Source: an uncultured Spirochaetota bacterium (GTDB lineage: Bacteria > Spirochaetota > UBA4802 > UBA5550). From it: 64,000 bases of DNA. The notes beneath the pieces were generated by a model. It was not told the DNA's origin. It saw only the letters and a list, made by a program, of their open reading frames with translations, and searched no databases. The stretch spans positions 92,409-156,408 of the forward strand of contig CAWHAA010000006.1 of NCBI GenBank assembly GCA_963827275.1. The letters run 5' to 3'. The position numbers and the translations under genes are program-made. The number at the start of each line of letters is the position of its first letter. Position 1 is the stretch's first letter. Below, in pieces: positions 12,210 through 55,401 of this stretch.

Positions 12210-13541
12210 TCATTCCCCCACATATCCGATGGTGACGTTCCCGGGCCCCTTGCCCACAATTTTCGCCAGGAGCTTTAAAAATACGATGAAGAGCAGGAGA
12301 TAGATGATGCTGAACATGATGATCGACAATAGTATCTGCCAGGCCGGGACCGACACGGACGCGGCATCCGAGGTCCTGAGGACGCCGTACACGGCCCATG
12401 GCTGCCTGCCGATCTCCGCCGCCATCCATCCCAGTTCGTTTGAAATGAAGGGGAGCGGAACAGCAACAATCAGGGCCCACAGATACCACCGCGACCCGTA
12501 CAGTCGCCCGGTGATCAGCAACATTGCGCCGATGGCCGCGATAAGCGCGAAAAGGGCGCCAAGCCCGATCATGCCATGGTAGGTGAGGTAGACCGGGATG
12601 ATAGGCGGCTGGTCTTCTTCCTTGAATTCATTGAGGCCGATGACCTTTGAATTAGGGTCGAAGTCAATCAGCAGGCTGAGCAGTTTCGGCACCGCGATCT
12701 CAAGGTGGGTCTTTTTCGCGGCAGGGTCGGGAAGGCCGACAAGGGACATCGGCGCGCCCTCCATGGTCTCCCAGAGCGCTTCAAAGGCCGCCATCTTGGC
12801 GGGCTGGGTCTTCGCGACCTGTACCGCATGGATGTGGCCGGAGCCGAATTGCAGCAGCGATACGGCGATGAATATGCTGAGGGAGATCGAGAGCAGCAGC
12901 CGGGCGGCGGGAAGTTCGCGGTTCTTTAAAATATACCAGGCCCCGATCCCGGCGGTAAAGAGCGTGCCGGTGATCCAGCCCCCGATGACGGTATGAAGGT
13001 AGCGCACGAGGGTGGACGGATTGAACGTGGCGGCGTATACGTCCTTCAGCACGGCCCTCCCGCCCTCAATGGCGAATCCGGCCGGTGTCTGCATCCACGA
13101 GTTGGCGATGATGATCCAGAACCCTGACAGGTGCGACGCAAAAAAAACGAGGAACGCCGAGAGGAGGTATACCTTCCCCGAGACGCGCTCCCTTCCGAAG
13201 AGGAGGATGCCGAGGAAGACCGATTCCATGAAAAAGGCCAGGATCCCCTCCGCGGCAAGCGGCGCTCCGAAGATATCGCCCACCATCCGCGAGTAATTTG
13301 ACCAGTTCGTCCCGAATGAAAATTCCAGCACGATGCCGGTCGCGACCCCCATCACGAACACGAGGCCGAGGATTTTAATCATGAACGTCGATACTTTTTT
13401 TACGAGCTCGTCCCCGTTCCTCGCATGCATGATCAGCAGGATGAGCACGACCAGGGTAAGTCCGAGGGTGAGGGGCGGGAAAATGAAATGGAATCCCGCT
13501 GTCAGACCGAATTGAATCCTTGAAAGAAGTACGGCATCCAT
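12210..13541 (-). CDS. cydA: cytochrome bd ubiquinol oxidase subunit I (short Q-loop type)
   Basis: 443 aa. N-terminal QFGLTAGFHFIFPPLTLGL and haem-ligand region HxxxxG, a multi-TM profile, and translational coupling to cydB. Confidence 0.9.
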   Translation of the reverse strand: MDAVLLSRIQFGLTAGFHFIFPPLTLGLTLVVLILLIMHARNGDELVKKVSTFMIKILGLVFVMGVATGIVLEFSFGTNWSNYSRMVGDIFGAPLAAEGILAFFMESVFLGILLFGRERVSGKVYLLSAFLVFFASHLSGFWIIIANSWMQTPAGFAIEGGRAVLKDVYAATFNPSTLVRYLHTVIGGWITGTLFTAGIGAWYILKNRELPAARLLLSISLSIFIAVSLLQFGSGHIHAVQVAKTQPAKMAAFEALWETMEGAPMSLVGLPDPAAKKTHLEIAVPKLLSLLIDFDPNSKVIGLNEFKEEDQPPIIPVYLTYHGMIGLGALFALIAAIGAMLLITGRLYGSRWYLWALIVAVPLPFISNELGWMAAEIGRQPWAVYGVLRTSDAASVSVPAWQILLSIIMFSIIYLLLFIVFLKLLAKIVGKGPGNVTIGYVGE

Positions 13542-15858: not shown

Positions 15859-17178
15859 ATGAAAACCGCAAAAATAATGTGCACGATTATAGCAGCGGCC
15901 TCTCTCATGCTCTGCGTATCATGCAGGAAAACGCAGCACTGGGAATTGTCCCGCTTCGTCTCGCCGGAAACCTGCGGCGGGTGTCACGACGCGATCTATG
16001 AACAGTGGAAGGGGTCGATGCACAGCCTGTCGCACGTTGACCCGATCTACCGCGAGGTGGCGCTCCACGACCTGAAGGGGCTTACCGACCCGGATGAGAT
16101 AAAGGAAGCGGAGCACTGCGTGCCCTGCCACACTCCGGTCGGCTTTGTGTCCGGCATGCCGCTGAAGACATCGGACCATACAAAGACGATACCTGAAATC
16201 GCCGCAAAGGGCATCCAGTGCGACTACTGCCATTCCGCGACGCGGGTACGCGAGGTATTCAATGCACAGATCGACATAGAGCCGGGGAACGGCGAGAGCG
16301 ACCCGGGGACAAAGCGCGGCCCGAGGAAAGACGCGGAACCTGATTTTCACAAGGCGGCATATTCTGAAATGCATACGCGTTCCGAATTCTGCGGTTCCTG
16401 TCATGACGTGCGGCATGTCGTTTTCGGGACGAAGCTTGAGACGCCGTACGAGGAATGGAAGAGAGGCCCCTACGCGGCGCAGGGCATACAGTGCCAGGGG
16501 TGCCATATGTACCAGCGGCCGGGCGTCCCTGCGACCGGCTCGACGGAACGGCCCGGCAACCCGGGGGCGTCGGCTTCGGGCGCAAAGGAGCGCCCCCATG
16601 TCTTTACCCATTATTTCACGGGGGGGAATTCCCTGGTCCCGTCCATGTTCAAAAACAAGGACCAGTCGAAGCTCGCTGAAGAGCGGCTTAAAAACGCCGC
16701 CACGGTCTCTATTGATGCAGCGCTCGCTGACGGCGCCCTGCGCGTCAAGGTGACCAACAGCGGTGCGGGCCACAGCATCCCGACCGGACTGAGCCACGTG
16801 CGACAGATGTGGCTTGAGGTGACGGTCACCGGCGCGGGAGGGAGGATGATATACAAGAGCGGTGCCCTGGACCGGGAGGGCAAAATACCGACCGGCGCGG
16901 TTCTCTATAACCTGGTGCTCGGCGACGGCAGGGGCGTCCCGGTAATGAATGTCGCAAAGGCGCGGGAAATCATCAGGGACAGGAGGATCGATCCGATGAA
17001 GAGCGCGGTGGAGACATACCGGCTGACCGGGATAGAGGAAAAAACCGTAACCGCCGAAGCGAAATTATGGTACCGCATCGCGCCGCAGGAGGTGGTCGAT
17101 GCCGTGCTCGGGAAAGGTGCGCTGGCGATACCTGCCGTCCTCATGGCATCTGACCGCAAAACGGTGACGGTCCGGTAG
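15859..17178 (+). CDS. secreted/lipo multihaem cytochrome c (five CxxCH motifs)
   Basis: 439 aa. N-terminal signal peptide. CGGCH, CVPCH, CDYCH, CGSCH and CQGCH. Diverges from the flavodiiron gene. Confidence 0.8.
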   Translation: MKTAKIMCTIIAAASLMLCVSCRKTQHWELSRFVSPETCGGCHDAIYEQWKGSMHSLSHVDPIYREVALHDLKGLTDPDEIKEAEHCVPCHTPVGFVSGMPLKTSDHTKTIPEIAAKGIQCDYCHSATRVREVFNAQIDIEPGNGESDPGTKRGPRKDAEPDFHKAAYSEMHTRSEFCGSCHDVRHVVFGTKLETPYEEWKRGPYAAQGIQCQGCHMYQRPGVPATGSTERPGNPGASASGAKERPHVFTHYFTGGNSLVPSMFKNKDQSKLAEERLKNAATVSIDAALADGALRVKVTNSGAGHSIPTGLSHVRQMWLEVTVTGAGGRMIYKSGALDREGKIPTGAVLYNLVLGDGRGVPVMNVAKAREIIRDRRIDPMKSAVETYRLTGIEEKTVTAEAKLWYRIAPQEVVDAVLGKGALAIPAVLMASDRKTVTVR

Positions 17179-26750: not shown

Positions 26751-27824
26751 ATGAAGAGGATCCTATCGGTCCTGATGGTAACGGCCGTCACCCTTGTTGG
26801 CTGTTCCTTCTGGAAATCAACCACACTCGGTTCAAAGAGGTTTGCTTTCATACCGAACGGCTCCGGGATCGGGCAGGCGGTGGTCACCACCGACGAGTAC
26901 GGTCTTGAGAACCTGTCGATCGGGGTCAGCGTTCTCAGCGGCCTGATCTGCGTAACGGACGATGAACTGCGGCGCGTACAGGTCATGAAACCGAACGGCG
27001 ATGTGAAGCTGATCATCGGGCCGGTCAAGAAGATGAAAACCGGGGACATCCCGGCGGAGAATTTCAACTTCGGCAGCCTGGGGTTCGTCGCGATGGATGA
27101 TGACGACAACCTGTATATACAGAATAAATTCTCCCGGATACGGGACAACGAAAAGGACAGGTCGGGCGGCGGGAACAGCATCGATTTCGCGCCATCCTAT
27201 ATCGTCGTATTCAACAAGGACGGCGAATTGCAATATACGCTCGGTCAGAAGGGAGCGACGGACACGCCGTTTTCGCATATCGAGCGCATCTATATCGATT
27301 CAAGCGACAGGCTGTTCGTCATATCGCGGTCGACCGATTCATGGAGCATCTTCCGCTTCAAGGGCAAAACGCGGGAGCGCCTGATAACCCTGAACACGCT
27401 GGAATTCAAGGAACGGGACGAGGAGAATGTTTTTGAAGGGAAAATCGACAATATCAGGGCGTTCTCCGACGGAGAGCGCCTCCTCATATCGGTTTCATTT
27501 TACCAGGGTCTGCGTCTCAAATATATCAAGATATTCGAATATTCGATCGATCAGGGCAAGGTCGATAAAACCATTATGGAGATTCCTGACCCCAAGAACG
27601 TCCTGCTCGATATAATGGACGATAAATACATCTACCTGTGGAACGTGAGCGACGGGAACGTCAAGTTCGAAGTGGCCAACCTTGACGGGACGGTGGTCAA
27701 CAACGTGTACCTGGAGATGGAGCGCAAGCGCGACTATTACGCGAAGATCATCCTTGACAATTCGGGGAAGATCTATTCCTACCATATTATGAAAGGCGGC
27801 GTCGAAATTCTAAAATGGGAGTAG
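26751..27824 (+). CDS. hypothetical lipoprotein
   Basis: Signal peptide with lipobox LVGC (MKRILSVLMVTAVTLVGCS). 357 aa. No recognised catalytic motif. Confidence 0.55.
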   Translation: MKRILSVLMVTAVTLVGCSFWKSTTLGSKRFAFIPNGSGIGQAVVTTDEYGLENLSIGVSVLSGLICVTDDELRRVQVMKPNGDVKLIIGPVKKMKTGDIPAENFNFGSLGFVAMDDDDNLYIQNKFSRIRDNEKDRSGGGNSIDFAPSYIVVFNKDGELQYTLGQKGATDTPFSHIERIYIDSSDRLFVISRSTDSWSIFRFKGKTRERLITLNTLEFKERDEENVFEGKIDNIRAFSDGERLLISVSFYQGLRLKYIKIFEYSIDQGKVDKTIMEIPDPKNVLLDIMDDKYIYLWNVSDGNVKFEVANLDGTVVNNVYLEMERKRDYYAKIILDNSGKIYSYHIMKGGVEILKWE

Positions 27825-29877: not shown

Positions 29878-30053
29878 CGCAGCAGGGAGACGTCCCGTTC
29901 CGTTAATCCAATTTTTTGCTTGCAATTTACCTCGTGACATGCAATGGATAAATCATGATGCCCCCGTCCTCTCGCGGGGGCAGGTATGGCTCCGTGGTTC
30001 AAGCCGGCGCGTGCTTGTCATCGCCCGGTATCCGGCATAGTGGGGGACAATGT

Positions 30054-31400
30054 ATGAAACGTTTAGCGCTGTCGATTATCATCATGGTCTTTGCATCGCC
30101 CTTCGGTTCATCCGCATTCGCTGACCCGTTCTCGCCTGACGGGGATTATCGCACCCCGAAAGAACAAAAGCAGGAGTACAACCACGTACTCGCCATCGGC
30201 ATCGACAATCCGTTCAGCAAGGGCACCAACGAATGGTCGCCGCTGTTCGCCTATTACTGGTTCGGCGATAATTTCAAGAACCCGGACCTGTACGCGCATG
30301 TAAGCGTCACCACCACCAGGATTACGGCCATCTTCGGGGCGAAGACCGACAGGATCTATGCCGGGATCAAACCGATTATCGAACACTCCACCTACTCATC
30401 ATGGCGGTCCTATAACCGCGGGTATGAAGACGTCCGCCGCGCCATCGGCGGGAACAATGTCGGCGTGGGCGCGTTCTTCCAGTATAACTTTCTCCGCATA
30501 TTGTCGGCCAGGGTGTTTTTCCATCCCTCCTATCACTTTTACCATTTCCCGATGCTGACCGAGAACCTCCACAAGTACGTGAATGTGCCGAAAAGGCACT
30601 GGCAGCTGAAACCGGGCATTGAAATCATACTTTCCGACCTCCAGGAGAAGGACCTGAACCGCGTGAGGCACGGGTACCTGTTCCGCGCGGAATACAACTA
30701 CGCGCGGAGAGTGGGGTACGGGACCTGGTACGATTATGACCGGGTCTTCTTCCGGGAGAAGTATAACAATATCTGGCTGCCACCCATTGAGCCCCATACC
30801 ACGCAGGGCGTCTGGTACCGGTCGAGGGTCAAGGACACCCACCGGGTCTATTTCAACGCGGGGCTCTATTACAACTTCAAGGGCGATTACAATCTCCAGT
30901 TCGATTTTTACGGCGGCTATTTCAAGAACGTCGACCGGAACAACGCGGAGCATATCGGCTACCTGCAGCAGGACCACGCGGTCATGCCGGGTTATTTCGA
31001 CACGGAATTCTATCACAATCTCTACCTGATCGGCCGCCTCCAGCTCGGCATCCCGATCCCCTTCTGGGGCATGAGGATACAGCCGGGGTTCAACCTTCTC
31101 TACATGCCGAAAAAGAACGAGGTCATCGGCCAGCGCGAGGGCGTGATCGCGTTCGGTACCGGCGCTCTTATAGGCTACCAGAGGCTGGGATACCGGGGGT
31201 ATCCGCGGACGCTCTATTCCAGCGTTTCGTGCGGGTTCTCGCTCCTTGTCGGCAACCTGTTGCCGCTTTTCATCGACTATGCCTACGGCATAGACGCGCT
31301 TCGTACGGGGTCGTCTCATAACGTGTATTTAAACCGGACCACCCGGGGCAGCCATGAGCTCCAGGTGCTCGTCGTTGCCGCGTTCGACAAGAACGAATAG
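30054..31400 (+). CDS. putative outer-membrane or secreted protein, Tyr/Phe/Trp/Asn-rich (beta-barrel-like composition)
   Basis: From MKRLALSIIIMVFASPFGSSAFADPF, a signal peptide with an AFA cleavage site. The listed 29955 start adds 33 aa with no signal-peptide logic and spans a GC hairpin. The aromatic/Gly/Asn-rich alternating pattern is only suggestive. Confidence 0.45.
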   Translation: MKRLALSIIIMVFASPFGSSAFADPFSPDGDYRTPKEQKQEYNHVLAIGIDNPFSKGTNEWSPLFAYYWFGDNFKNPDLYAHVSVTTTRITAIFGAKTDRIYAGIKPIIEHSTYSSWRSYNRGYEDVRRAIGGNNVGVGAFFQYNFLRILSARVFFHPSYHFYHFPMLTENLHKYVNVPKRHWQLKPGIEIILSDLQEKDLNRVRHGYLFRAEYNYARRVGYGTWYDYDRVFFREKYNNIWLPPIEPHTTQGVWYRSRVKDTHRVYFNAGLYYNFKGDYNLQFDFYGGYFKNVDRNNAEHIGYLQQDHAVMPGYFDTEFYHNLYLIGRLQLGIPIPFWGMRIQPGFNLLYMPKKNEVIGQREGVIAFGTGALIGYQRLGYRGYPRTLYSSVSCGFSLLVGNLLPLFIDYAYGIDALRTGSSHNVYLNRTTRGSHELQVLVVAAFDKNE

Positions 31401-34733: not shown

Positions 34734-35880
34734 CCTGCCGCCGGGCGAACCGCGATATGACTTCGATATGGTGGGTGCAGGGAAACATGTCGATCAGGGA
34801 CATCCTGTCAAGCCGGTAGCCTCCCATAATGAAATCCTTCGCATCGCGGGCAAAGGTGGACGGATTGCAGGAGACGTACACAATCGCGTCCGGTTCCATG
34901 GCCAGGATCGTGCTTCGCGTTTTCCTGTCGATGCCGGCCCGGGGAGGGTCGATCACGACCAGACCGGGCCGCATGCGGCCCGGATGGATGCGTGCGGAAG
35001 GCATCGCCTGGAACCGCACATTTTCAATACTATTATCAATCGCGTTCTGCCGTGCCCACCTGATGCTCTCGCTGTTGATGTCGATCCCGAAGCCGTTCCC
35101 TGATGTTCCGGCCAGCGCGAGGGTGAAAAATCCCACGCCGCACCCGATGTCAATGAATGACCCGGCCCGGTCGATGCCGGCGTACTCCTTTACGATCTCC
35201 ATCATCCGTCCGCGGAGGATCCGGTTGGCCTGGAAGAACTGCTGTATCCCCCGCATGAACGTGAGCCCCCCGGCGGTGTCCCTCACCACCGGCCCGGGTT
35301 CCCGCGAGCTGATGACGCGTCCGGTCGAATCAGCCGCAATCCGGAATCCGCCGGGGGCCTGCTGATTGTCGTCAATCCACCTGTTCAATTCAGGGGCCAG
35401 GAGGAGGCAGCCGTGGCCGTGAAGCGGGATCAGCTCGTTCGATCCTTTCCGGTAAAAGCCCTGGCCGTCGCTGCCGGCCTTCAGCGTGGCATGGCTCCGG
35501 TAATTGAACCGGTCGCCGGCGGCAATGGCGATCTCCGGCAGTTCAGCCGCATCCATCCCGGCCATTCTCGCCATGCAGTCAAGAAGTATGATTTTCTTGA
35601 ATTGAAGCTCGCAATCGTATGAGAGGTGCTGGTAACAGCAGCCGCCGCATTGCTCATGGAAAGGGCACGCGGGCTCGATACGGGAACCGGACCGGCTGAC
35701 GATGGTCTCAACCGCGCCGAGGGAATAATCTTTTTTGTCTTCGGTTATGCGCACCAGGACTTCTTCGCCGGGAGCGGTATAGGGGACCAGGACGGCCTTG
35801 CCGTCAAGGCGGCCCAGGGAATACCCGCCGTAGAGGGGCTTTTCAATGAGGAGGGAAATGGTTCGTGCTCGTTGGGACAT
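34702..35880 (-). CDS. 23S rRNA (uracil-C5)-methyltransferase RlmD/RumA-like (TRAM domain, 4Fe-4S Cys cluster, class I SAM methyltransferase)
   Basis: 392 aa. N-terminal TRAM-like barrel. Cys cluster CPFHEQCGGCCYQHL. SAM motif IDIGCGVGFFTLALA. C-terminal nucleophile region MFPCTHHIE. Confidence 0.8.
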   Translation of the reverse strand: MSQRARTISLLIEKPLYGGYSLGRLDGKAVLVPYTAPGEEVLVRITEDKKDYSLGAVETIVSRSGSRIEPACPFHEQCGGCCYQHLSYDCELQFKKIILLDCMARMAGMDAAELPEIAIAAGDRFNYRSHATLKAGSDGQGFYRKGSNELIPLHGHGCLLLAPELNRWIDDNQQAPGGFRIAADSTGRVISSREPGPVVRDTAGGLTFMRGIQQFFQANRILRGRMMEIVKEYAGIDRAGSFIDIGCGVGFFTLALAGTSGNGFGIDINSESIRWARQNAIDNSIENVRFQAMPSARIHPGRMRPGLVVIDPPRAGIDRKTRSTILAMEPDAIVYVSCNPSTFARDAKDFIMGGYRLDRMSLIDMFPCTHHIEVISRFARRQVRQGAGERTS

Positions 35881-36033
35881 ATTTCAATCGATCCGCATAA
35901 ATTCTGTTTGACAATCGACCGTCACCGGCGTATCAGATTTGTGTTATGCAGGGATGTAACAATATCAGTCAATCCATTTCCGATATTACAGATAAAATGG
36001 AGTGATTCTATCATTTCGCTTCCGGGCAATCAA

Positions 36034-37593
36034 ATGAAGAATATCGTGATCGTACTGCTCTTTTTCGCGCACCTCGCGGTGATACCCTCCTGCAAGAGCA
36101 GAGGTGTCATGGAGAAGGAACCGAATAATTCATTCTCCACTGCGGGCGCGGTTACGGTGGACGCGTCGCATCTCGGGTACATGGGCGGGCCCGGCGACCG
36201 TGATTTTTACATCTACTCTTCAGAGGGCAGGGGGGCCATCGACATCCAGGTCTCGGGTGTCAAGGGGATCAACCTGGCCTTCAAAATCTGGCGCGGGGAA
36301 GAGGAGCCGCGGCTCCTGAAATATGTCGATGATAACCGGAAATCCTCACCGGAACGGCTGGCAAACCTTTCCGTGGCGCCGGGCACCTATTACATCGAGA
36401 TTCTGCAGAGCGACCGCGATGCCAAAAAACCGAACAGGGAGATCCCCTATGAATTAACGCTGAAGATGAGGGATGCTGTCTCGGAAGAATCGGAACCGAA
36501 CGACTCGAGGGACGATGCGGACACCCTGAGCGCGGATGGCGGGATTACCGGCTATTATTCACCCGCCTACAACAGGCTCAATGAGGAAGGGGACACCCTC
36601 CACCGCGAAGAGGACTGGTTCGTGCTGGATATCTCGCTGAAGCAGGATGAGACCCGGCTCCTGGACCTGTCGCTTTCAGGGGTGATCGGCATAAATTCGG
36701 TCATGGCCCTCTATGATTCAGGGGGAAACCTCCTGGCGGAAACCGATAACGGAGGTCCTGACGAGCCTGAATCGATATCAGGGGCGGGGATTAAAAAATC
36801 AGGGAGCTATTATGTCCTCGTGTGGTCAAAAGGATATACCGCCAGCCATGAAGAGCCCTATCGACTGGCCGCCACCCTCAGAGAGCACGATGCAGGGGTT
36901 GAGATCGAGCCAAACGGGGACCCCGAAAGGTGCAATGTAATTCAAAACAATATTATAACGGGACGGATCAATACAAAGGACGACATTGATATGTTTCTGT
37001 ACGAGGGAATGGACGGTCCCTCCTTTTTCAGGATTGAGCTGAAGCCTCCCGAGGACATGGACGTCATGCTGGCGATCCAGGGGAATGACCGGGAAAAGAT
37101 CACGGAATGCAATAGTGGCGGCAGGGGCAAGAAGGAAGTGTACCCGAATTATTTTGCAGCAGGAAGCTTCTATATAACAATAACGGCAAAGACAGGGGAG
37201 AAGCTCCCCGATGGCGAGTATGTGCTGACCGTTGCCCCGCTCGGCGACAGGGAGGGCCATGAGCGGGAGCCGAACAATGAAATTGCGCAGGCGGGGCAGA
37301 TCAAAGGAGCCTCCGTCACCGGTTATACCTCGTCGAGGGGCGACAAGGACTATTTCAGGATCAGCCATGATGTGCGGGTGAAGGAGCGGTTCGAGATTCG
37401 CGGACCGAAGGGCGGCGCGATCAGGGTGTCGATTACCGATCCGCTCGGTTATATCATAAAAACCATTGACGCGGTGGGCGATCGGGCCATGACGTTCAGC
37501 GAGATGATTGACAAGAAAGGCTATATTATCGTAGAGTCCATAAAAGAAGATTACGATGCTCCGTATATCATATACTTCAGAGGTGCACAATGA
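36034..37593 (+). CDS. lipoprotein with four pre-peptidase C-terminal (PPC)-like repeats
   Basis: From MKNIVIVLLFFAHLAVIPSCKS (lipobox IPSC). The PPC-type E-P-N-[ND]-S/T entry motif recurs four times (KEPNNSFSTAGA, ESEPNDSRDDADTL, IEPNGDPERCN, EREPNNEIAQAGQI), about 120 aa apart. The listed 35626 start is antisense overlap with rlmD. Confidence 0.6.
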   Translation: MKNIVIVLLFFAHLAVIPSCKSRGVMEKEPNNSFSTAGAVTVDASHLGYMGGPGDRDFYIYSSEGRGAIDIQVSGVKGINLAFKIWRGEEEPRLLKYVDDNRKSSPERLANLSVAPGTYYIEILQSDRDAKKPNREIPYELTLKMRDAVSEESEPNDSRDDADTLSADGGITGYYSPAYNRLNEEGDTLHREEDWFVLDISLKQDETRLLDLSLSGVIGINSVMALYDSGGNLLAETDNGGPDEPESISGAGIKKSGSYYVLVWSKGYTASHEEPYRLAATLREHDAGVEIEPNGDPERCNVIQNNIITGRINTKDDIDMFLYEGMDGPSFFRIELKPPEDMDVMLAIQGNDREKITECNSGGRGKKEVYPNYFAAGSFYITITAKTGEKLPDGEYVLTVAPLGDREGHEREPNNEIAQAGQIKGASVTGYTSSRGDKDYFRISHDVRVKERFEIRGPKGGAIRVSITDPLGYIIKTIDAVGDRAMTFSEMIDKKGYIIVESIKEDYDAPYIIYFRGAQ

Positions 37594-43276: not shown

Positions 43277-45580
43277 ATGCGCCAGATAAAGAGAGTTTCG
43301 ATTATCGGTGCGGGTTCGTGGGGCACCGCTGTTGCCAAATCGATCGCGGAATCAAAGCCGCACCTTGCCGTTGTCATGTGGGCCTATGAGCGCCCCGTGG
43401 CCGCTTCAATCAATTCATCTCATGAGAACGCCGAGTTCCTTCCCGGGACGCAGCTTCCCGCGTCAATAACCGCAACGAACGACCTCGAGGAGGCGGTCAA
43501 AGGAACGGATGTCGTCATCCTTGCTACGCCCTCGAAGGCGGCGTACGATGTATGCCGTAAAATGGCGAAGCACGTAACGGGCGAGATGTACGTCGGCTTC
43601 CTGACCAAGGGCTTCTGCAAGATAGACGGGCAGGTGCTGACAATATCACAGGCGATGGAGAGGGCCATGCCCCGGACCGCGGGGAGGATCGTCGCCATCT
43701 CGGGACCGAGCCACGCCGAAGAGGTGTGCCGGCGGTTCCATACCTGCCTGAACGCCGGGAGCGAATCGGAGGAGGCCAGGACCGTCATCGCGGGGCTCCT
43801 TACATCGGAATGGGTCCAGTGCCGGACCACCGCGGACATACGCGCCGTGGAGGTGGGCGGGACGCTGAAAAACCCCGCGGCCATCGCGGCCGGCATGATC
43901 AGCGCACTGCCGCGGTGCGGCGACAACCTGGCGGGCGCCCTCATCTCGGAGGCGCTCAAGGAGATGGTGCGGCTCGGCAGGGTGTTCGGCATCAGCGAGG
44001 ACGGCATGATCGACATCTCGGGTCTCGGCGACCTTGTCGCAACGGCCCTGAGCCAGCACAGCAGGAACCGCAGGTTCGGCAGGGACATCGCCGGCCAGAT
44101 CATGACAAAGGGGAACGCACTCAATCTCTGGGACCGGATTGTGCTGCGGGTCAGGCCGTACAGCGTGATCGAGCGGATGGGCGGGAAATTCCACTACCTC
44201 GCCGAAGGCGCCTATGCGATCGAGCCGCTGATCGAGCTGGCTGAAAAAGAAAAAATATCAATACCGGTCTACCGCGCACTCTACGAGGTGCTGTTGAACA
44301 AGAAGGACCCATCGCTCCTCATCGAGACCATAAAGAACCCGGAGCGGTTCAACGAGCTGTTTTTCAGCACGAAGATACAGATTGCCGGCAGGAAGAGGGG
44401 CCTTGAGACGATCAAGGGCAAAGCGTTCAGGGAGCACATCATCGCCATGACGATGGAGCGCTTCGTCGCGAAAAAGAATGACGGATTGCTGCCATACGGC
44501 ACGGGCGACGTGATACACGCCCTCGCTGATTCCCTCCGGAAGCAGGGGATCACCGGCGCGGAGGCGGCGATTATCCGCGGCATGAACAGCGATAACTACG
44601 GTGATTCAATCAGCCGGCTTGCGGGCATGTATATCGATGATATCGCCGACAGCTACAGCACCTGGTTCAAGTGGCTCTGCCTCATCGGGTTTGCGTTTTC
44701 CCGCATCGGCTCACTGTTCATGAAAAGAACGAACGGGCTCGTCGTTTCGGGTCCGCTGGATGAAATACGCAGGGTCGGCAGACAGGTTACCATCCTGTAC
44801 GCTGCGCCGTTCCAGGACCGGCGCGATGCTATGTTCGCCGCTATGTCAATCGCGCGCTCGCGGCTGCCGTTTCCGCGCTTTCAGGTTGACGCAGGGCTCG
44901 GGGCGCGTGAACGGTTGCTGCTGAAGAGGTGCGGGGGGTTCACCATCGACAGGAATAAGCTCGACAACATGGTATACCGTGAAACGCTGGTGCAGTACCT
45001 TTCCACCATGGCGGGACACGGTGTCCCGGTGCTTTCCATGCTCCCCATCGGGACGGAAGCCACGGCGCAGGGCGAACGCAATGTCCTTGTCTCTGCCATA
45101 ACCGAATGCATGTACCGGCATGCTGCCGAACTGGCCCTGGTCCCGTTCGGCGTATCCTATCTCGGCAGGCCGGGAGACGGTGGCGCCGCTCCCTCGTTCA
45201 GGGACCTCCTGTCCGCTACCGCATGGGTCAATTTCTCAAAACCGATCCGGCTTTCCGAATACACGAAACAACCGCATATGATGGTAGGTCTTCCCGGGAT
45301 CGTCGCCGGCATCTGGGAGAAGGAGAGAAAAATCCTGCCGCATTACCTCCTCTGCAAGGCGCTCGCGGAACATGGATTTTCCGTAAAACAGGCGGATGCT
45401 ATCGTGTTCGTGAAGAAGTACATGCGGCGTGCCGGCAGGCGATTCGATCACAACCCGACACGGACCGTCCGCAAGGGATTGGCATATCTCGAGGAGAGCG
45501 GGGTTGCCACGTCCGATGGTGTAACTATAGAGGCGGCAGACAGGGAGATGGTCAGCTACTACGCCGGCCTTGTCCCATGA
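43277..45580 (+). CDS. gpsA: NAD(P)H-dependent glycerol-3-phosphate dehydrogenase (GpsA, about 345 aa) fused to a C-terminal domain of about 420 aa of uncertain function, possibly a degenerate PlsB-like glycerol-3-phosphate acyltransferase
   Basis: N-terminus is IIGAGSWGTAVA...ATPSKA...KGF (the GpsA fold), through ...ISIPVYRALYEVL. A continuous ORF then adds 420 aa with no internal stop. The C-terminal part shows weak GPAT-like spacing (APFQDRRD / GGFTIDRN / LPIGTEATAQGER) but no HxxxxD. Confidence 0.7.
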   Translation: MRQIKRVSIIGAGSWGTAVAKSIAESKPHLAVVMWAYERPVAASINSSHENAEFLPGTQLPASITATNDLEEAVKGTDVVILATPSKAAYDVCRKMAKHVTGEMYVGFLTKGFCKIDGQVLTISQAMERAMPRTAGRIVAISGPSHAEEVCRRFHTCLNAGSESEEARTVIAGLLTSEWVQCRTTADIRAVEVGGTLKNPAAIAAGMISALPRCGDNLAGALISEALKEMVRLGRVFGISEDGMIDISGLGDLVATALSQHSRNRRFGRDIAGQIMTKGNALNLWDRIVLRVRPYSVIERMGGKFHYLAEGAYAIEPLIELAEKEKISIPVYRALYEVLLNKKDPSLLIETIKNPERFNELFFSTKIQIAGRKRGLETIKGKAFREHIIAMTMERFVAKKNDGLLPYGTGDVIHALADSLRKQGITGAEAAIIRGMNSDNYGDSISRLAGMYIDDIADSYSTWFKWLCLIGFAFSRIGSLFMKRTNGLVVSGPLDEIRRVGRQVTILYAAPFQDRRDAMFAAMSIARSRLPFPRFQVDAGLGARERLLLKRCGGFTIDRNKLDNMVYRETLVQYLSTMAGHGVPVLSMLPIGTEATAQGERNVLVSAITECMYRHAAELALVPFGVSYLGRPGDGGAAPSFRDLLSATAWVNFSKPIRLSEYTKQPHMMVGLPGIVAGIWEKERKILPHYLLCKALAEHGFSVKQADAIVFVKKYMRRAGRRFDHNPTRTVRKGLAYLEESGVATSDGVTIEAADREMVSYYAGLVP

Positions 45581-49552: not shown

Positions 49553-50467
49553 TCAGAGCTTTTCGAGAAAGAGATAGAGATCCTGCGGCGTGGCGATAGC
49601 CGTAGCGATCACCTTGTACGGGATATTGTTGCCGTGGTACAGGAAGTCCAGTTTGTTGCGCTTGATATCGAGGCTCTGCTTCGTCTGCTCATCGTAAAGG
49701 ACAACATAGTTCGAGAGGGAGAGGGCGAAGATGGTCACTCTCGGGGGATAGGTTTCTTTCAGCCTGTTGACGATGAAATTGGAAAAATCGACGATATTGA
49801 ACACCCCCTCCCTGGAGAAGGCGCCGGTGGATTTGAACAGGATGAATTGATCGGCGTAAACCGCCCCGCTTTTGCCGGCGTTGAATATCCGTGAGATTTC
49901 GGCTGATATGTCGCTCATGTAGTTGAGCATCACGGGCGAAAAGAGCTCGCGGTTCCTGAGGTACACGGTCTTCAAAAGCTCGGAAAGAAATTCAAAATCG
50001 GCAACATTGAAGAGCGGGGACGAGGTGACCGCAGCGGTGAAGATGGTATCCCTGTCAGCGGAGATCTTTTTAAAGACGAGTGAGAAGGACTGGCCTTTCT
50101 GGCTCCCGAGGCGGACCCTGACGGGCTTTTCGCCCTCCGCGGCAGCGCATTCACGCGCAATCAGCTCCGGGAGCGCGTTCAGGAGCACCATGTCGCCTAC
50201 CGCCGCGATGGGCACGGGGGAGCCGTTACGCTCGGTGAATATCGCGGTCAGGCCGGTGTAGTTTGCGACATTATGATGATGCAGGGCGCCCTTTAAAAAA
50301 CCGCTCCCCTGTTCGGAGATGTATCGTGCCTCGAATTTCTTATAGTGGGAAAGGAGTACCCGGTAGGCGTTTCTCGCCTTCTCGGGGGACAGGGCCCCGC
50401 CGGAATACCCCTTGATGGTCTCCTTTATCTGGTCGATGAGGATGTCGATGTTGGCGGTTTCAGTCAT
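49553..50467 (-). CDS. hypothetical protein (304 aa)
   Basis: Long ORF with coding-like composition, co-directional with its neighbours. No motif recognised. Confidence 0.4.
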   Translation of the reverse strand: MTETANIDILIDQIKETIKGYSGGALSPEKARNAYRVLLSHYKKFEARYISEQGSGFLKGALHHHNVANYTGLTAIFTERNGSPVPIAAVGDMVLLNALPELIARECAAAEGEKPVRVRLGSQKGQSFSLVFKKISADRDTIFTAAVTSSPLFNVADFEFLSELLKTVYLRNRELFSPVMLNYMSDISAEISRIFNAGKSGAVYADQFILFKSTGAFSREGVFNIVDFSNFIVNRLKETYPPRVTIFALSLSNYVVLYDEQTKQSLDIKRNKLDFLYHGNNIPYKVIATAIATPQDLYLFLEKL

Positions 50468-52732: not shown

Positions 52733-54454
52733 TCAGATGAGCATGATCGCCGTACAGAGGACCATGAGAAACGCAAGGTTGGCATCGACCAGGACTTCGT
52801 ATTTCAACGCGATAAGATAATTGAGCCGGTTTATCAGGATAATCAGCGCCTCGTAATATATGAGTGTCACCGCGAGGGGCAGAAAGCGCCATTCGCTGAA
52901 CACGACGGTCAGCGCGGCATAGACCGCGACGCCGGCAGCGGAGACAATCGCGGTCAGCAGCCTCATTGCGCGGGTGCCCACCATGATCGGGAGCGTCTCC
53001 CTGCCGAGTATCAGGTCGCCCTGGAACGCGATCATGTCCATCAGTGCGGTCCTGAGAAAGACCAGCGCGAACACAAGGACGGAGAGGGCGGCAAGCGGGG
53101 CAGGCGCCAGTCCGGCAGCGGACATCGGCGTGAGCACGGTGATGATGATCCAGCCAAAACAGGCGACTATTTTCGAATTGTAGATTTTCCGCATGAACCG
53201 CGGGTGGATCCTGGAAACAGTGCTTTTAACCGGCCGGGTTGAATAGATAAAGCCAAGGAGGTATGACCCGGCGACAAGCGCGACCGTCGCTGCGGTAAAA
53301 CGCCCGGCGAGAAAGACCGACAGGAGCATTGCGGCGATCGAGGCCAGGAGAAAGGGCATGCCGTACCTGCCGTAGACGGCATATTTATACGGGTTGCTCA
53401 GCTTCAGCAGGTCTCTTTCGAAGTAATTGTTGATTGAGTACATTGAAAAGATATATAGGAACGAGATGACCGGCAGCTCGTAGCTGACCGGCGTATCCGT
53501 ATATTCAAAGGTGATCATGGTGAGGAAAAAAGCCGCGGCTGCGGCAAGCAGGTTTGTCCGCACGATCATCTCAACGAAGGACACTGCCGCCTTGATGAAA
53601 ATATTGCTCTTTTTGAAATTGATCGTGTACAGCCGCTCCAGGACGTTGTTGATGATCCAGCCGGGGGTTGACGTTCCCGCCGTGACCAGGACGCTCCGGG
53701 AATCCCTGAAGTCCCTTTCGTCCAGCTCCGCTTCTGTTTCCACGTGGAAGGTTTTGACGGCATTGTCCCTGCCGATCTGGGCCAGCCGTTTTGTGTTCGC
53801 GGAATTCTTTCCGCCGACCACCACGAGCGTGTCCGTGCCGCTGGATATGCCGAGGAATACGTCCTCCTGCCGGTAGCGGGTGGAGTCGCAGATCGTATCG
53901 AAGACCGTGACGTCGGCGAATTTTTCCTTTATGCGGGAGACGATCATGGTGAAAAGCTTGCGGTCGAAGGTGGTCTGTGAAACGACCAGGTAGGAGGCGG
54001 CAGGCGGGACATCATCCACTTCCCGGATGTCCGATATGACGGAGACGCCGCCCGACGCGTAGCTCATCAGGCCGGTGACCTCGGCATGGTCGCGGTCACC
54101 GGTGATGATGGTGTGCTTGTTCATGGCGGAATATTTTTTTATGATCGACTGCACGCGGGCGACCCGCGGGCAGGTCAGGTTGATGACGGCGCTGGCGCAT
54201 TTGTTCAGCGTGCGGTTGTCTTCAACCGGGACGCCGTGGGTGCGTATGACGACGCGCTTGTTCCCGATCTCCTCTATCGAGGAAATGGTGCGCATCCCCC
54301 TGCGATGGAGCACGTCGATGGTCTGCGGGTTGTGTATCAGCGGGCCGTATACCAGGAGCTCTTCATCGGAGGCGTTTATCTCGCGGACGATACGGAGGAT
54401 GGCGTTTCTCACGCCCATGCAGAATCCCGAGTGGCGCGCCAGGGTGATCTTCAT
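52733..54454 (-). CDS. ispH: 4-hydroxy-3-methylbut-2-enyl diphosphate reductase (IspH/LytB, N-terminal 290 aa) fused in one ORF to a C-terminal UbiA-superfamily membrane prenyltransferase-like domain (280 aa, about 8 TM)
   Basis: N-terminus is MKITLARHSGFCMGVRNAI...GPLIHNPQ...NSANTKRLAQI, the IspH fold with its Cys ligand context. After ...GWIINNVLERL there is a continuous hydrophobic domain carrying UbiA-type motifs NNYFERDLLKLSNPYK (NDxxDRxxD..NxPxR-like) and FQGDLILGRETLPIMVG (the DxxGDxxxGxxTLP motif). Confidence 0.7.
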   Translation of the reverse strand: MKITLARHSGFCMGVRNAILRIVREINASDEELLVYGPLIHNPQTIDVLHRRGMRTISSIEEIGNKRVVIRTHGVPVEDNRTLNKCASAVINLTCPRVARVQSIIKKYSAMNKHTIITGDRDHAEVTGLMSYASGGVSVISDIREVDDVPPAASYLVVSQTTFDRKLFTMIVSRIKEKFADVTVFDTICDSTRYRQEDVFLGISSGTDTLVVVGGKNSANTKRLAQIGRDNAVKTFHVETEAELDERDFRDSRSVLVTAGTSTPGWIINNVLERLYTINFKKSNIFIKAAVSFVEMIVRTNLLAAAAAFFLTMITFEYTDTPVSYELPVISFLYIFSMYSINNYFERDLLKLSNPYKYAVYGRYGMPFLLASIAAMLLSVFLAGRFTAATVALVAGSYLLGFIYSTRPVKSTVSRIHPRFMRKIYNSKIVACFGWIIITVLTPMSAAGLAPAPLAALSVLVFALVFLRTALMDMIAFQGDLILGRETLPIMVGTRAMRLLTAIVSAAGVAVYAALTVVFSEWRFLPLAVTLIYYEALIILINRLNYLIALKYEVLVDANLAFLMVLCTAIMLI

Positions 54455-54468
54455 AGGCAGGGGCCCGC

Positions 54469-55401
54469 CTACTGCACCGGGATGATTTTGTCTATCGGGT
54501 GCTCCGTGGCCCCCGGCTGCTGGCCGCCTCCCTGTGACATTTCAAACCGCGGCATCATGAGCGAGCCGCGGAGCTGGAACGCCACCTGGTTGCGGTCATT
54601 GATGGATTTTTCGAGAAAATTGCGGTAATTTTCGAGCAGCGGCGAATCAGCATTAAGGAGCAGACTGAGATCGAGGCCCGAATTCATCATGTTTTTCTGA
54701 AGCGAGACGGATCCGGTCACGGACCCGTTCAGGTCCTTGCCGAAGATGCGGCAGTTCCGTATCATTATCTTGCCGCCGGTGATGTCGGCCTCGATCTTTA
54801 TCGAGCTGATCCTTGTCGGTGGGATCGAAAGCGGGAGCCCTCCCATCGAGTCGGGAAGCTCAATCTGGGAAAACTTCATCATCGCATTGTCGATGATAAT
54901 GGTGATGCTGCCGCTTTGCGGCAGGCCGTCAAAGGTCTTGTAATCGAGAAAAACATTGCCGTTCAGGTTCATGCTTATCTGGGAGGTGCCGGAATCGTAT
55001 TTAAAGCCGGCAAGCTGTACCGTGCCTTTTACGTCCTTGGCGATCAGCAGCCTGAGCAAGGAGATGTCGATGTCGGCCGTGCGGACGTTGATTTCGCTCC
55101 CGCTCCGTAAAACGGCGTACAGGCCTTTCGTCTCGATGATGTCGATCAGGCTGAAGTTCAACTCATTTATGGATATGGTCTTGAGGGCCCCTTTCTCGAG
55201 CTGCTTGAGCCTGGCGCGGATAAGCATGTCATAGGGGAAGGTCAGCACCAGGAAGACCATGACCATGAAAAGCGCGAAGGCGATGTAGGTCTTCGCGTAC
55301 GGGAGCGTTAATGCCTCTTTCGCCCTGCTCCAGAGCGTCGAAAAATTGAAATAGGATTTGAGTACGGGCAGAACTGAATTTTTTATGCTGGCAACGTCCA
55401 T
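54469..55401 (-). CDS. gspN: type II secretion system protein N-like (GspN) or other distal T2SS/T4P assembly protein
   Basis: 310 aa. Single N-terminal TM (YIAFALFMVMVFLVLTF) then a periplasmic domain. Placed immediately after gspM at the distal end of the gsp cluster. Assignment is mainly by position. Confidence 0.45.
   Translation of the reverse strand: MDVASIKNSVLPVLKSYFNFSTLWSRAKEALTLPYAKTYIAFALFMVMVFLVLTFPYDMLIRARLKQLEKGALKTISINELNFSLIDIIETKGLYAVLRSGSEINVRTADIDISLLRLLIAKDVKGTVQLAGFKYDSGTSQISMNLNGNVFLDYKTFDGLPQSGSITIIIDNAMMKFSQIELPDSMGGLPLSIPPTRISSIKIEADITGGKIMIRNCRIFGKDLNGSVTGSVSLQKNMMNSGLDLSLLLNADSPLLENYRNFLEKSINDRNQVAFQLRGSLMMPRFEMSQGGGQQPGATEHPIDKIIPVQ

Follow-up and report, generated by a model that had tools for sequence, protein, structure and literature searches.

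A minus-strand gene in a 64,000-nucleotide stretch of DNA from an uncultured Spirochaetota bacterium (here called the window) raises the question of what a membrane domain does when it is joined to IspH, an essential enzyme and drug target. The gene had been described, from the letters of the window, as a single-ORF fusion of IspH with a UbiA-superfamily membrane domain, and the fold, profile, and motif alignments presented here all concur with that description.

One open frame for IspH and a membrane domain

Our own translation of the minus strand gave a single ORF at exactly 52733..54454, which begins with ATG, encodes 573 amino acids, and has its sole stop at its end, in agreement with the uninterrupted 573-codon frame claimed in the preliminary description (Table 1). 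Both protein strings quoted there, NNYFERDLLKLSNPYK (residues 342 to 357) and FQGDLILGRETLPIMVG (residues 477 to 493), were found verbatim in the protein; a look-up found the exact protein sequence to be absent from the record. It would be extremely improbable for an open frame of 573 codons that carries two homologous domains to arise by chance.

Table 1. Features of the fusion gene, with positions in the window
Feature	Residues	Position	Strand	Remarks
Entire ispH::ubiA-like ORF		52733..54454	-	573 codons, then a stop at 52733-52735
IspH/LytB domain, HMBPP reductase	1-281	53612..54454	-	Fe-S and substrate residues present
Fe-S ligand codon	C12	54419-54421	-	
Fe-S ligand codon	C95	54170-54172	-	
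Fe-S ligand codon	C189	53888-53890	-	
Junction, KSNIFIKAAVSFVEMIVRTN	282-301	53552..53611	-	Short linker plus amphipathic helix (285-299)
UbiA-fold membrane domain	302-573	52736..53551	-	9 TM helices
Degenerate first Asp-rich motif, NNYFERDLLKLSNPYK	N342..K357	53384..53431	-	HMM alignment to 6m31; residue frequencies
Central Y..K motif, YSTRPVK	Y404..K410	53225..53245	-	Cytoplasmic end of TM4
Second Asp-rich region, RTALMDMIAFQGDLILGRETLPIMVG		52976..53053	-	R468, D473, A476, D480, G484, E486-T-L-P489, G493
Family-specific KYEvLvD	E553-xxx-D557	52784..52804	-	Cytoplasmic start of TM9

Public gene calls show two separate genes on the noisy contigs L001 and L002 and on L003, as might be expected if ispH and a ubiA-like gene had been merged by mistake during sequencing or assembly of the window. 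However, the split on L001 comes from a G-run that is one base longer than in an 85%-identical relative (L013), L002 is frameshifted along its whole length, and splitting the protein at that point would cut TM1. The reading frame of the window is uninterrupted, with neither a stop nor a frameshift at the junction (53552 to 53611), which is the defect that the preliminary description had proposed looking for. The junction is in frame in independent assemblies as well: a single open frame of ≥573 amino acids spans both domains in 21 of 23 Spirochaetota/Leptospirales species loci (the contigs are cut at the other two), and the same in-frame junction occurs in >100 protein clusters from other phyla. 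In the AlphaFold model, the junction is a continuous helix-linker-helix with a pLDDT of >90, and the pTM (0.92) suggests that the domain arrangement is defined. The fusion is a genuine single gene and not an assembly artifact, and the probability that an error joined two genes is negligible.

The N-terminal half had been taken for a complete IspH/LytB, which was borne out both by the Pfam LYTB model PF02401 (residues 3 to 275 against profile positions 1 to 266 of 267; 262.2 bits; cutoff, 24.5) and by the presence of all known catalytic and Fe-S residues. TIGR00216 scored 243.1 bits (cutoff, 187.85), and the domain has the trefoil IspH fold. C12, C95, and C189 align with the [4Fe-4S] ligands C12, C96, and C197 of Escherichia coli IspH and do not vary among 143 fusions, except that C12 is absent in rows that are gapped at this position. 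The substrate-binding and proton-relay residues of the E. coli enzyme (H41, H74, H124, E126, T167, S225, N227, and S269) have as their counterparts H41, H73, H123, E125, T162, S218, N220, and S262, which are all present and invariant. Judged by these residues, the IspH half is a complete HMBPP reductase and is apparently active.

The top NCBIfam match of the IspH half was the bifunctional IspH/S1 model, which was matched only at positions 1 to 279 of 671 (268 bits versus a cutoff of 624). IspH is likewise N-terminal in the two-part IspH-RPS1 fusions; unlike them, the window fusion has no S1 repeats, and its partner is a membrane domain.

Distribution and family membership

The preliminary description considered this architecture unusual. 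However, Rao, O'Dowd, Li, Wang, and Oldfield published "IspH-UbiA Rosetta stone proteins" in 2015 (Chem Sci 6:6813; PMC4746011), and we found at least about 120 full-length fusion clusters in several phyla, among them Thermodesulfobacteriota, Deltaproteobacteria, Nitrospinota, Nitrospirota, and Auribacterota. The window gene is a member of this known IspH-UbiA fusion family, and its architecture is not new. Rao et al. ranked IspH-UbiA as the second commonest IspH fusion (47 sequences, "all in sulfate-reducing anaerobes") and described a C-terminal half with two DxxxD motifs that belongs to CDD class PT_UbiA_5; the sole published attempt to express a sulfate-reducer IspH-UbiA failed (PMC4746011). 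The window protein shares with these fusions its domain order, a C-terminal half of ~9 TM helices, a length of about 575 amino acids, and intact IspH residues; its host differs, being part of a Leptospirales-related spirochete clade. Many anaerobic and microaerophilic bacteria, including at least 23 Leptospirales-related species, carry IspH within a membrane protein, and the membrane domain has been overlooked because public annotation names such proteins plain IspH. For the window, the outcome is a corrected annotation and not a new kind of system.

Word-indexed homology searches returned only 11 and 18 matches, which made the C-terminal domain look like a near-orphan; an exhaustive profile search showed this appearance to be a sensitivity artifact of the word-indexed search. 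Since the search profile (A1) included about 100 IspH positions, IspH-only proteins such as P0160 contribute to its counts (229 at 1e-30 and 3,265 at 1e-3), and we therefore used only the best 150 matches listed. Among these, 149 extend over the membrane domain; 119 of them have lengths of 555 to 610 amino acids. Both halves of the fusion are under strong purifying selection (dN/dS of 0.08 to 0.17 for the C-terminal domain versus 0.05 to 0.10 for IspH). The identities of the two domains correlate (r = 0.72), and the IspH and membrane halves coevolve as a single unit.

The membrane half had been credited with about eight TM helices; the AlphaFold model instead has nine, plus one amphipathic helix, and shows the nine-TM UbiA fold with cytoplasmic capping loops. 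Lys and Arg residues number 15 in the inside loops versus 1 in the outside loops, and the prediction is that the N terminus, the IspH half, and the motif-bearing loops face the cytoplasm. The UbiA HMM check that had been suggested gave a divided result: the window protein scored 24.4 bits against PF01040 (25.5 bits for the domain alone), which is below the gathering score of 34.2, whereas 24 of 27 diverse proteins from the fusion subfamily matched this model at an E value of ≤0.01 (best E value, 1.3e-18), and the fold agrees. Membership in the UbiA superfamily rests on these family-level matches together with the fold. An HMM built only from fusions (106 distant fusions, each <26% identical) matched the C-terminal domain of the window protein end to end at 177.6 bits, compared with 24 to 25 bits for the Pfam UbiA model. 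Because it scores 178 bits against this profile of distant fusions, the C-terminal domain forms a subfamily of its own, to which the published fusions also belong.

Weak matches to ChlG (NF005742, 24 to 26 bits) and DGGGPS (6m31, E value of 6e-7) would be compatible with an ordinary MenA/MqnP, UbiA, CtaB/CyoE, ChlG/BchG, or DGGGPS whose pathway is fed by the fusion. However, the C-terminal domain reached no equivalog cutoff among the NCBIfam models for DGGGPS, ChlG/BchG, MenA, UbiA, and CtaB, and the shortfall was about tenfold (for the ChlG model NF005742, 25.8 bits with the C-terminal domain and 24.1 bits with the full-length protein, against a cutoff of 313). When 27 family members were compared with these models, the DGGGPS/archaeal prenyltransferase models matched most frequently (20/27), MenA models matched 12 members weakly, and neither the CtaB (haem O synthase) model nor the UbiA model was matched; the DGGGPS, MenA, and ChlG models were matched only at E values of 1e-5 to 1e-11. 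The 178-bit match to the fusion-only profile and the absence of a canonical motif 1 also argue against an ordinary subfamily member, as do the separate MenA/UbiA proteins reported in genomes with the fusion (PMC4746011). On the scores, a MenA, UbiA, CtaB, ChlG, or DGGGPS identity of the C-terminal domain was rejected. With the equivalog cutoffs widely missed, no evidence assigns the domain to the quinone, haem O, chlorophyll, or DGGGPS clade, and we consider it very unlikely that the fusion, as the preliminary description suggested, feeds the pathway of an ordinary family member.

Motifs of the membrane half and their possible function

By profile, the closest solved structure is MjDGGGPS (PDB 6M31; E value of 6e-7 with the family profile), which likewise has nine TM helices and an N-terminal amphipathic helix (PMC9385802) to which the junction helix of the fusion (residues 285 to 299) corresponds. 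N62, R77, Y125..K130, R175, D180, and D187 of MjDGGGPS correspond to N342, K357, Y404..K410, R468, D473, and D480 of the window protein. ApUbiA (4OD4/4OD5) and AfUbiA (4TQ3) are unfused and 13 to 16% identical to the fusion; they have both Asp-rich motifs in full, with two bound Mg2+ ions (PMC9385802). The top single-sequence match of the C-terminal domain was ChlG/BchG (NF005742, E value of 5e-6; PDB 9sau, E value of 0.05). ChlG and the fusion have in common a second motif of the form DxxxxxGD, with no Asp in the middle, as well as KY(E/Q) close to TM9, although ChlG, unlike the fusion, retains NDxxDxxxD, and the photosynthesis context is absent here. These comparisons suggest that the closest characterized relatives of the membrane domain are DGGGPS/ChlG-type O-prenyltransferases.

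In the first Asp-rich motif, N62, D63, D66, D70, P75, and R77 of MjDGGGPS align with N342, N343, E346, L350, P355, and K357, such that the window protein has NNxxExxxL in place of the canonical NDxxDxxxD. The preliminary description had correctly noted the ND-to-NN substitution but gave an incomplete picture of the damage, since E346, L350, and, in the second motif, A476 are replacements as well. D66 and D70 of MjDGGGPS bind Mg2+, and the D66A and D70A mutants lose most of their activity (PMC9385802). All 26 clade members have Leu at position 350, and position 346 is Glu in 15, Thr in 5, Asp in 4, and Met in 2, with the nonacidic Thr or Met found in the more distant spirochete relatives (L019 to L026). 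Whereas the published fusions have two DxxxD motifs, motif 1 of the spirochete clade reads NNxxE/T/MxxxL and lacks a conserved Asp, and its motif 2 reads DxxAxxxD; the window protein contains no DxxxD, the nearest patterns being D473-x6-D480 and E553-xxx-D557.

The second Asp-rich region is the best-conserved stretch of the membrane domain, with D473 and D480 both conserved (D480 in 142 of 143 fusions). Its middle position, D183 in MjDGGGPS, is A476 in the spirochete clade; of 117 other fusions, 80 have Asp there. The Y..K motif described for DGGGPS (PMC9385802) is present, as is a basic residue after motif 1 (Arg or Lys at the K357 position in 116/143). The ExxxD pair (E553/D557) is conserved across the fusion family, in contrast to DGGGPS (6m31), where the aligned stretch is nonacidic at these positions, and to ChlG (9sau), which has Gln at the E553 position and whose alignment stops before D557. 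The conserved polar residues of the membrane half are R468, D473, D480, E486, E553, D557, N342, K357, and Y404. Judging from the spirochete clade, the UbiA half can do without the classical form of its first Asp-rich motif and without the middle Asp of its second, while R468, D473, D480, GRETLP, Y..K, and the ExxxD on TM9 are retained. The retained residues are concrete mutational targets, and the spirochete proteins provide new orthologs after the failed expression of the sulfate-reducer protein.

The explanation that we favor, with slightly better than even confidence, is that a membrane-tethered, active IspH is joined to a noncanonical prenyltransferase that uses prenyl diphosphates. The IspH half would serve as the cell's membrane-tethered HMBPP reductase and provide IPP and DMAPP at the inner membrane face. 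The membrane domain would bind an allylic or polyprenyl diphosphate via R468, K357, D473, D480, and one Mg2+, with E553/D557 on TM9 and N342/N343/E346 standing in for the lost D66/D70-type ligands, and would then pass the prenyl group to a membrane-embedded acceptor. Counting against such a transferase are a motif 1 that is not intact, Ala476 at the position of D183, a PF01040 score below the gathering score, and gene neighborhoods that are of a housekeeping kind and vary from phylum to phylum.

A different possibility is that the membrane domain of the spirochete clade is no longer a transferase and acts as an anchor and/or a lipid-diphosphate-binding regulatory module, which would place IspH near, e.g., electron donors or polyprenyl synthesis or would tune IspH by the prenyl (di)phosphate level. 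Of the five Asp residues on which MjDGGGPS activity depends, three are replaced (E346, L350, and A476), position 346 is nonacidic in relatives L019 to L026, and membrane localization or sensing is among the options that Rao et al. list for the fusion (PMC4746011). UBIAD1, a UbiA-family binding partner of HMG-CoA reductase that is responsive to geranylgeranyl diphosphate (PMC4374513), would be a precedent by analogy, and HMGCR-UBIAD1 complexes (PDB 8DJK/8DJM) were among the structural matches. However, a plain anchor needs neither an invariant RxxxxD..QGDxxxGRETLP, a Y..K motif, and an ExxxD pair nor a dN/dS of about 0.1 over 290 residues. Asn and Glu can serve as Mg2+ ligands, which they do in the NSE/DTE motifs of terpene cyclases, and chlorophyll synthase, whose motif 2 has no middle Asp in the alignment, is active; both points speak against a loss of transferase function. 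UBIAD1 also works as an enzyme in its own right, so that a sensing role would not preclude catalysis. We regard a purely anchoring or regulatory role as somewhat unlikely.

It is quite unlikely, in our estimation, that the UbiA half of the spirochete clade is either a membrane-embedded prenyl-(di)phosphate sensor covalently wired to IspH or a one-Mg2+ enzyme with a metal site on TM9. With a sensor, the polyprenyl pool of the membrane may feed back on the MEP pathway, and the fusion, if this were true, would do in one bacterial polypeptide what the UBIAD1-HMG-CoA reductase circuit does. That circuit is noncovalent, eukaryotic, and part of the mevalonate pathway, and UBIAD1, unlike the fusion, has canonical motifs; the likeness is an analogy, with homology confined to the UbiA fold. 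With a one-Mg2+ enzyme, the metal site may have been relocated from TM2 to the ExxxD on TM9, and DMAPP, if this were true, would pass straight from IspH into an undescribed C5-prenylated membrane lipid.

Gene neighborhood

In the spirochete clade, T2SS genes are followed by the fusion and then by aroE and folC, a synteny that differs from that of the fusions of Rao et al. The window also encodes a cytochrome bd quinol oxidase, which implies that the organism has a quinone pool. This pool and the aroE gene adjoining the fusion would suit an ordinary prenyltransferase whose pathway the fusion feeds, but the aroE/folC adjacency is confined to the spirochete clade. When neighborhoods were compared for functional partners, no neighbor was conserved across phyla, and the contexts were housekeeping ones that differed by phylum; no other isoprenoid or quinone biosynthesis gene was found among the 38 ORFs scanned in the window. 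A housekeeping context that lacks isoprenoid partner genes would be in keeping with an anchor or regulatory module.

For the noncanonical transferase that we favor, true channeling would need DMAPP (C5) as the donor, because neither the fusion itself nor an adjacent gene supplies a chain-elongating synthase. With any other donor, the fusion would merely colocalize and coexpress the precursor supply with membrane prenylation. An Rfam scan of the window gave zero matches. At some Desulfobacterota-type loci, the fusion is flanked by Dus upstream and a generic GT2 downstream.

A single-frame fusion conserved among spirochaete relatives

The preliminary description had placed a single IspH-UbiA frame on this stretch, and we found one minus-strand ORF at exactly those positions, with both quoted motif strings verbatim in its translation. 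The sole stop of the frame, as judged by independent translation, is its end, and the coordinates of all sub-features were verified by re-translation. The N-terminal half was likewise borne out as a complete IspH, by Pfam LYTB (262 bits, profile positions 1-266 of 267), by TIGR00216 (243 bits, cut-off 187.85) and by the presence of all cluster and substrate residues. The closest solved structure for this half is Aquifex IspH (3dnf; E 1e-47, 33-34% identity). In alignment, the three cluster ligands of E. coli IspH are matched by C12, C95 and C189, and its substrate and proton-relay positions by H41, H73, H123, E125, T162, S218, N220 and S262; the cluster and substrate residues are invariant across 143 aligned fusions, save for alignment gaps at C12.

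The fusion proved genuine and conserved. When one genome was scanned for each GTDB species, 23 loci came up; the source MAGs bear the titles Spirochaetota/Spirochaetes, Leptospirales, Leptospiraceae or Leptospira in 22 cases, and the remaining locus is titled "uncultured bacterium." In 21 of the 23, both domains lie within a single open frame of at least 573 amino acids (aa), the other two being contigs cut short. No named cultured Leptospira species was among the matches of this species-level scan; the match titled "Leptospira biflexa" (locus L024) is a MAG. The gene order T2SS K/L/M/N, fusion, aroE, folC is common to the window and its relatives. In the window, the upstream GspN gene stops 14 nt short of the fusion ATG, and aroE and folC lie downstream.

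Three public calls in relatives resemble UbiA-like proteins standing alone, but each reflects an artefact or decay. Locus L001 (5070-6792; ENA ERZ25039527) differs from locus L013, to which it is 85% identical, by one extra G-run base exactly where the two domains meet, while L002 (4200-6750; ENA ERZ25039513) has many frameshifts affecting the whole locus. Public gene calls split both fusions into an "IspH" and a "UbiA-like" protein (P0006 and P0009), so that in databases the membrane domain takes on the appearance of a separate orphan protein. The copy in a low-GC relative (L003:5362-6816; JGI 3300005264) has two frameshifts and deletions in both halves, lacking ~50 aa of IspH, among them the third Fe-S cysteine and the GGKNSANT loop, and ~42 aa of the membrane domain in the TM5 region. 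This copy looks decayed and is either a pseudogene or a misassembly; if it is a pseudogene, the organism would have another route to IPP and DMAPP.

A UbiA fold with a putatively altered metal site

The C-terminal half (C-domain, residues 302-573) has a UbiA fold but is no canonical UbiA member. An AlphaFold model of the full-length fusion, built on an alignment of 120 fusions, reached a pLDDT of 95.7 and a pTM of 0.92, with zero residues below 70; the high pTM suggests that the two halves have a defined mutual arrangement. Residues 285-299 form an amphipathic helix that is followed by nine TM helices, the layout reported for the digeranylgeranylglyceryl phosphate synthase MjDGGGPS (PMC9385802). 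Given that the membrane-half loops carry 15 K+R inside and 1 outside, IspH and all motif-bearing loops are placed in the cytoplasm, and the active regions of both halves are predicted to lie on that side.

In MjDGGGPS, motif 1 comprises N62, D66 and D70, with Mg2+ bound by D66 and D70; the central motif is Y125..K130, and the second Asp-rich motif comprises D180, D183 and D187. Alanine mutants of D66, D70, D180, D183 and D187 keep little activity (PMC9385802). We derived residue equivalents from a profile alignment of the fusion family to MjDGGGPS and counted them in the 143-fusion alignment (26 rows of the window-related spirochaete clade and 117 other fusions).

Residue equivalents between MjDGGGPS and the window fusion, with their occurrence
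MjDGGGPS	Window	Occurrence
N62	N342	Conserved
D63	N343	N in 26/26 of clade; Asp in no fusion
D66	E346	Clade E15/T5/D4/M2; acidic in 78/117 others
D70	L350	Leu in 26/26 of clade; acidic in just 25/117 others
R77	K357	R/K in 116/143
Y125..K130	Y404..K410	Y404 in 131/143; K410 is K17/R5 of 26, in clade only; Pro in 84/117 others
R175	R468	R in 130/143
D180	D473	D in 26/26 of clade; D90, E11 of 117 others
D183	A476	A/G in clade; Asp in 80/117 others
D187	D480	142/143

Based on the counts at N343, E346 and L350, the classical first Asp-rich motif is degenerate across the fusion family and essentially gone in the spirochaete clade. The most conserved stretch of the fusion protein is the second motif region, LRTxLxDxIAxQGDLIxGRETLP. 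A further acidic pair, E553 and D557, is acidic in 26/26 of the clade and in 96/117 and 109/117 of the other fusions, respectively. DGGGPS lacks acidic residues in the stretch aligned to this pair, and in ChlG, whose alignment stops short of D557, the E553 position is Q. E553-xxx-D557 may be a metal or diphosphate ligand in place of the lost motif. Since dN/dS over seven pairs was 0.08-0.17 for the membrane domain, versus 0.05-0.10 for the IspH half, the membrane domain is not decaying.

Family membership and possible function

As regards a canonical prenyltransferase function, the preliminary description was too optimistic. Motif 1 is essentially lost in the clade, and the suggested check with Pfam UbiA gave 24.4 bits for the window sequence, under the 34.2-bit gathering score. 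The top NCBIfam match of this half was ChlG, at 24 bits versus a cut-off of 313. Among 27 diverse fusion C-domains, the archaeal "prenyltransferase" and DGGGPS models matched in 20 (best E, 3e-14 and 2e-11), MenA models in 12 and ChlG models in 11, and neither haem O synthase nor 4-hydroxybenzoate prenyltransferase models matched any. All of these matches were far under curated cut-offs, and the C-domain belongs to no characterised UbiA subfamily. The closest solved structure by profile is DGGGPS (6m31; E 6e-7), and the C-domain is most like the O-prenylating DGGGPS/ChlG group.

Rather than being a rarity, the architecture was published in 2015, when Rao et al. presented a set of 47 such proteins, "all in sulfate-reducing anaerobes," with a UbiA half of CDD class PT_UbiA_5, function unknown; their attempt at full-length expression failed (PMC4746011). 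In the literature searched, a single further paper uses the term. An exhaustive profile search matched almost entirely ~575-aa proteins; among the best 150 matches, 149 extend over the membrane domain and 119 have a length of 555-610 aa. Sources in several phyla include Spirochaetota, Thermodesulfobacteriota, Deltaproteobacteria/Syntrophobacteria, Nitrospinota, Nitrospirota and Ca. Auribacterota, and the annotation is nearly always plain IspH. Since the window C-domain scored 177.6 bits, end to end, against an HMM of 106 fusions that are each <26% identical to it, it belongs to this subfamily, and the window protein is a new spirochaete member of the published family, although its motifs are more degenerate than those of the described members. 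Identities of the two halves co-vary (r = 0.72; 10,153 pairs), as expected for one evolving unit. Fold, family HMM and in-frame loci together uphold the architecture first noted, a single polypeptide joining a competent-looking IspH to a conserved UbiA-fold domain.

Rao et al. proposed that IspH is brought to the membrane to supply IPP and DMAPP locally (PMC4746011). In our reading, the IspH half would make both at the membrane, and the membrane half, its metal site altered, would use its conserved basic and acidic residues to bind an allylic diphosphate and would prenylate a lipid-soluble acceptor. Direct channelling from IspH would occur only with DMAPP as the donor; DMAPP-using UbiA enzymes exist, such as lycopene elongase. 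With any other donor, the fusion would give co-localisation and stoichiometric co-expression. The main rival is that the membrane domain may now serve IspH as an anchor or as a ligand sensor, with a precedent in UBIAD1-HMGCR (PMC4374513), which was also among the structural matches; the missing equivalents of D66, D70 and D183 favour this rival. The active-site-like residues that remain, however, are strongly conserved, which speaks for catalysis or, at a minimum, for binding of a specific ligand.

Genomic surroundings

The window comes from a Leptospirales-like genome and is a housekeeping region, with dnaG, rpoD, gpsA and a T2SS operon; the Leptospira-specific families GspN_Lepto and LIC_12708, both over their cut-offs, place it in a Leptospirales-related lineage. 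Given the cytochrome bd quinol oxidase, the organism respires with a quinol oxidase, has a quinone pool and needs some enzyme that makes a prenylated quinone; the 38 window ORFs scanned include no isoprenoid or quinone biosynthesis genes.

Features of the window
Feature	Position	Strand	Remarks
IspH-UbiA-like fusion ORF	52733..54454	-	ATG start, 573 aa (ORF list)
KYExLVD (K551-D557) with family-specific E553-xxx-D557	52784-52804	-	Cytoplasmic start of TM9
GspN, Leptospira-type (TIGR04411 GspN_Lepto)	54469-55401	-	89 bits vs cut-off 50
LIC_12708 family	26751-27824	+	176 bits vs cut-off 150
Cytochrome bd oxidase subunit I	12210-13541	-	510 bits
Multihaem c-type cytochrome	15859-17178	+
GpsA ORF	43277-45580	+	767 aa
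ORF	29955-31400	+	481 aa
ORF	35626-37593	+	655 aa
ORF	49553-50467	-	304 aa
Pyridine-nucleotide-disulfide oxidoreductase	1296-2978	-	C-terminal rhodanese domain
Pyridine-nucleotide-disulfide oxidoreductase	7695-9044	-

Fusion neighbours in other phyla differ from those in the window. In three Desulfobacterota-type relatives (L030:6937-10714, L032:4027-6725 and L035:3997-7669), Dus (tRNA-dihydrouridine synthase) is directly upstream, with a 4-nt overlap with the fusion start, and in two of these a generic family-2 glycosyltransferase, with no specific NCBIfam assignment, lies 3' of the fusion (13-nt overlap in L030). ParAB is near the fusion in two other-phylum loci, and one locus has PlsY in convergent orientation. 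No neighbour in the window or the other-phylum loci examined points to a prenyl donor or acceptor.

GpsA (glycerol-3-phosphate dehydrogenase) models match only residues 1-356 of the GpsA ORF, whose C-terminal ~400 aa matched no family. This extra length is either genuine or the result of calling the ORF too long; the homologue in L003 has 509 aa. The 481-, 655- and 304-aa ORFs have no Pfam/NCBIfam family, bar a sub-threshold DVUA0089-family match for the 655-aa ORF. The 304-aa ORF adjoins folC, as do its counterparts in L001 and L002 (315 and 303 aa, without Pfam match). Of the two oxidoreductases, the one fused to a rhodanese domain has a CoA-disulfide/persulfide-reductase-like architecture.
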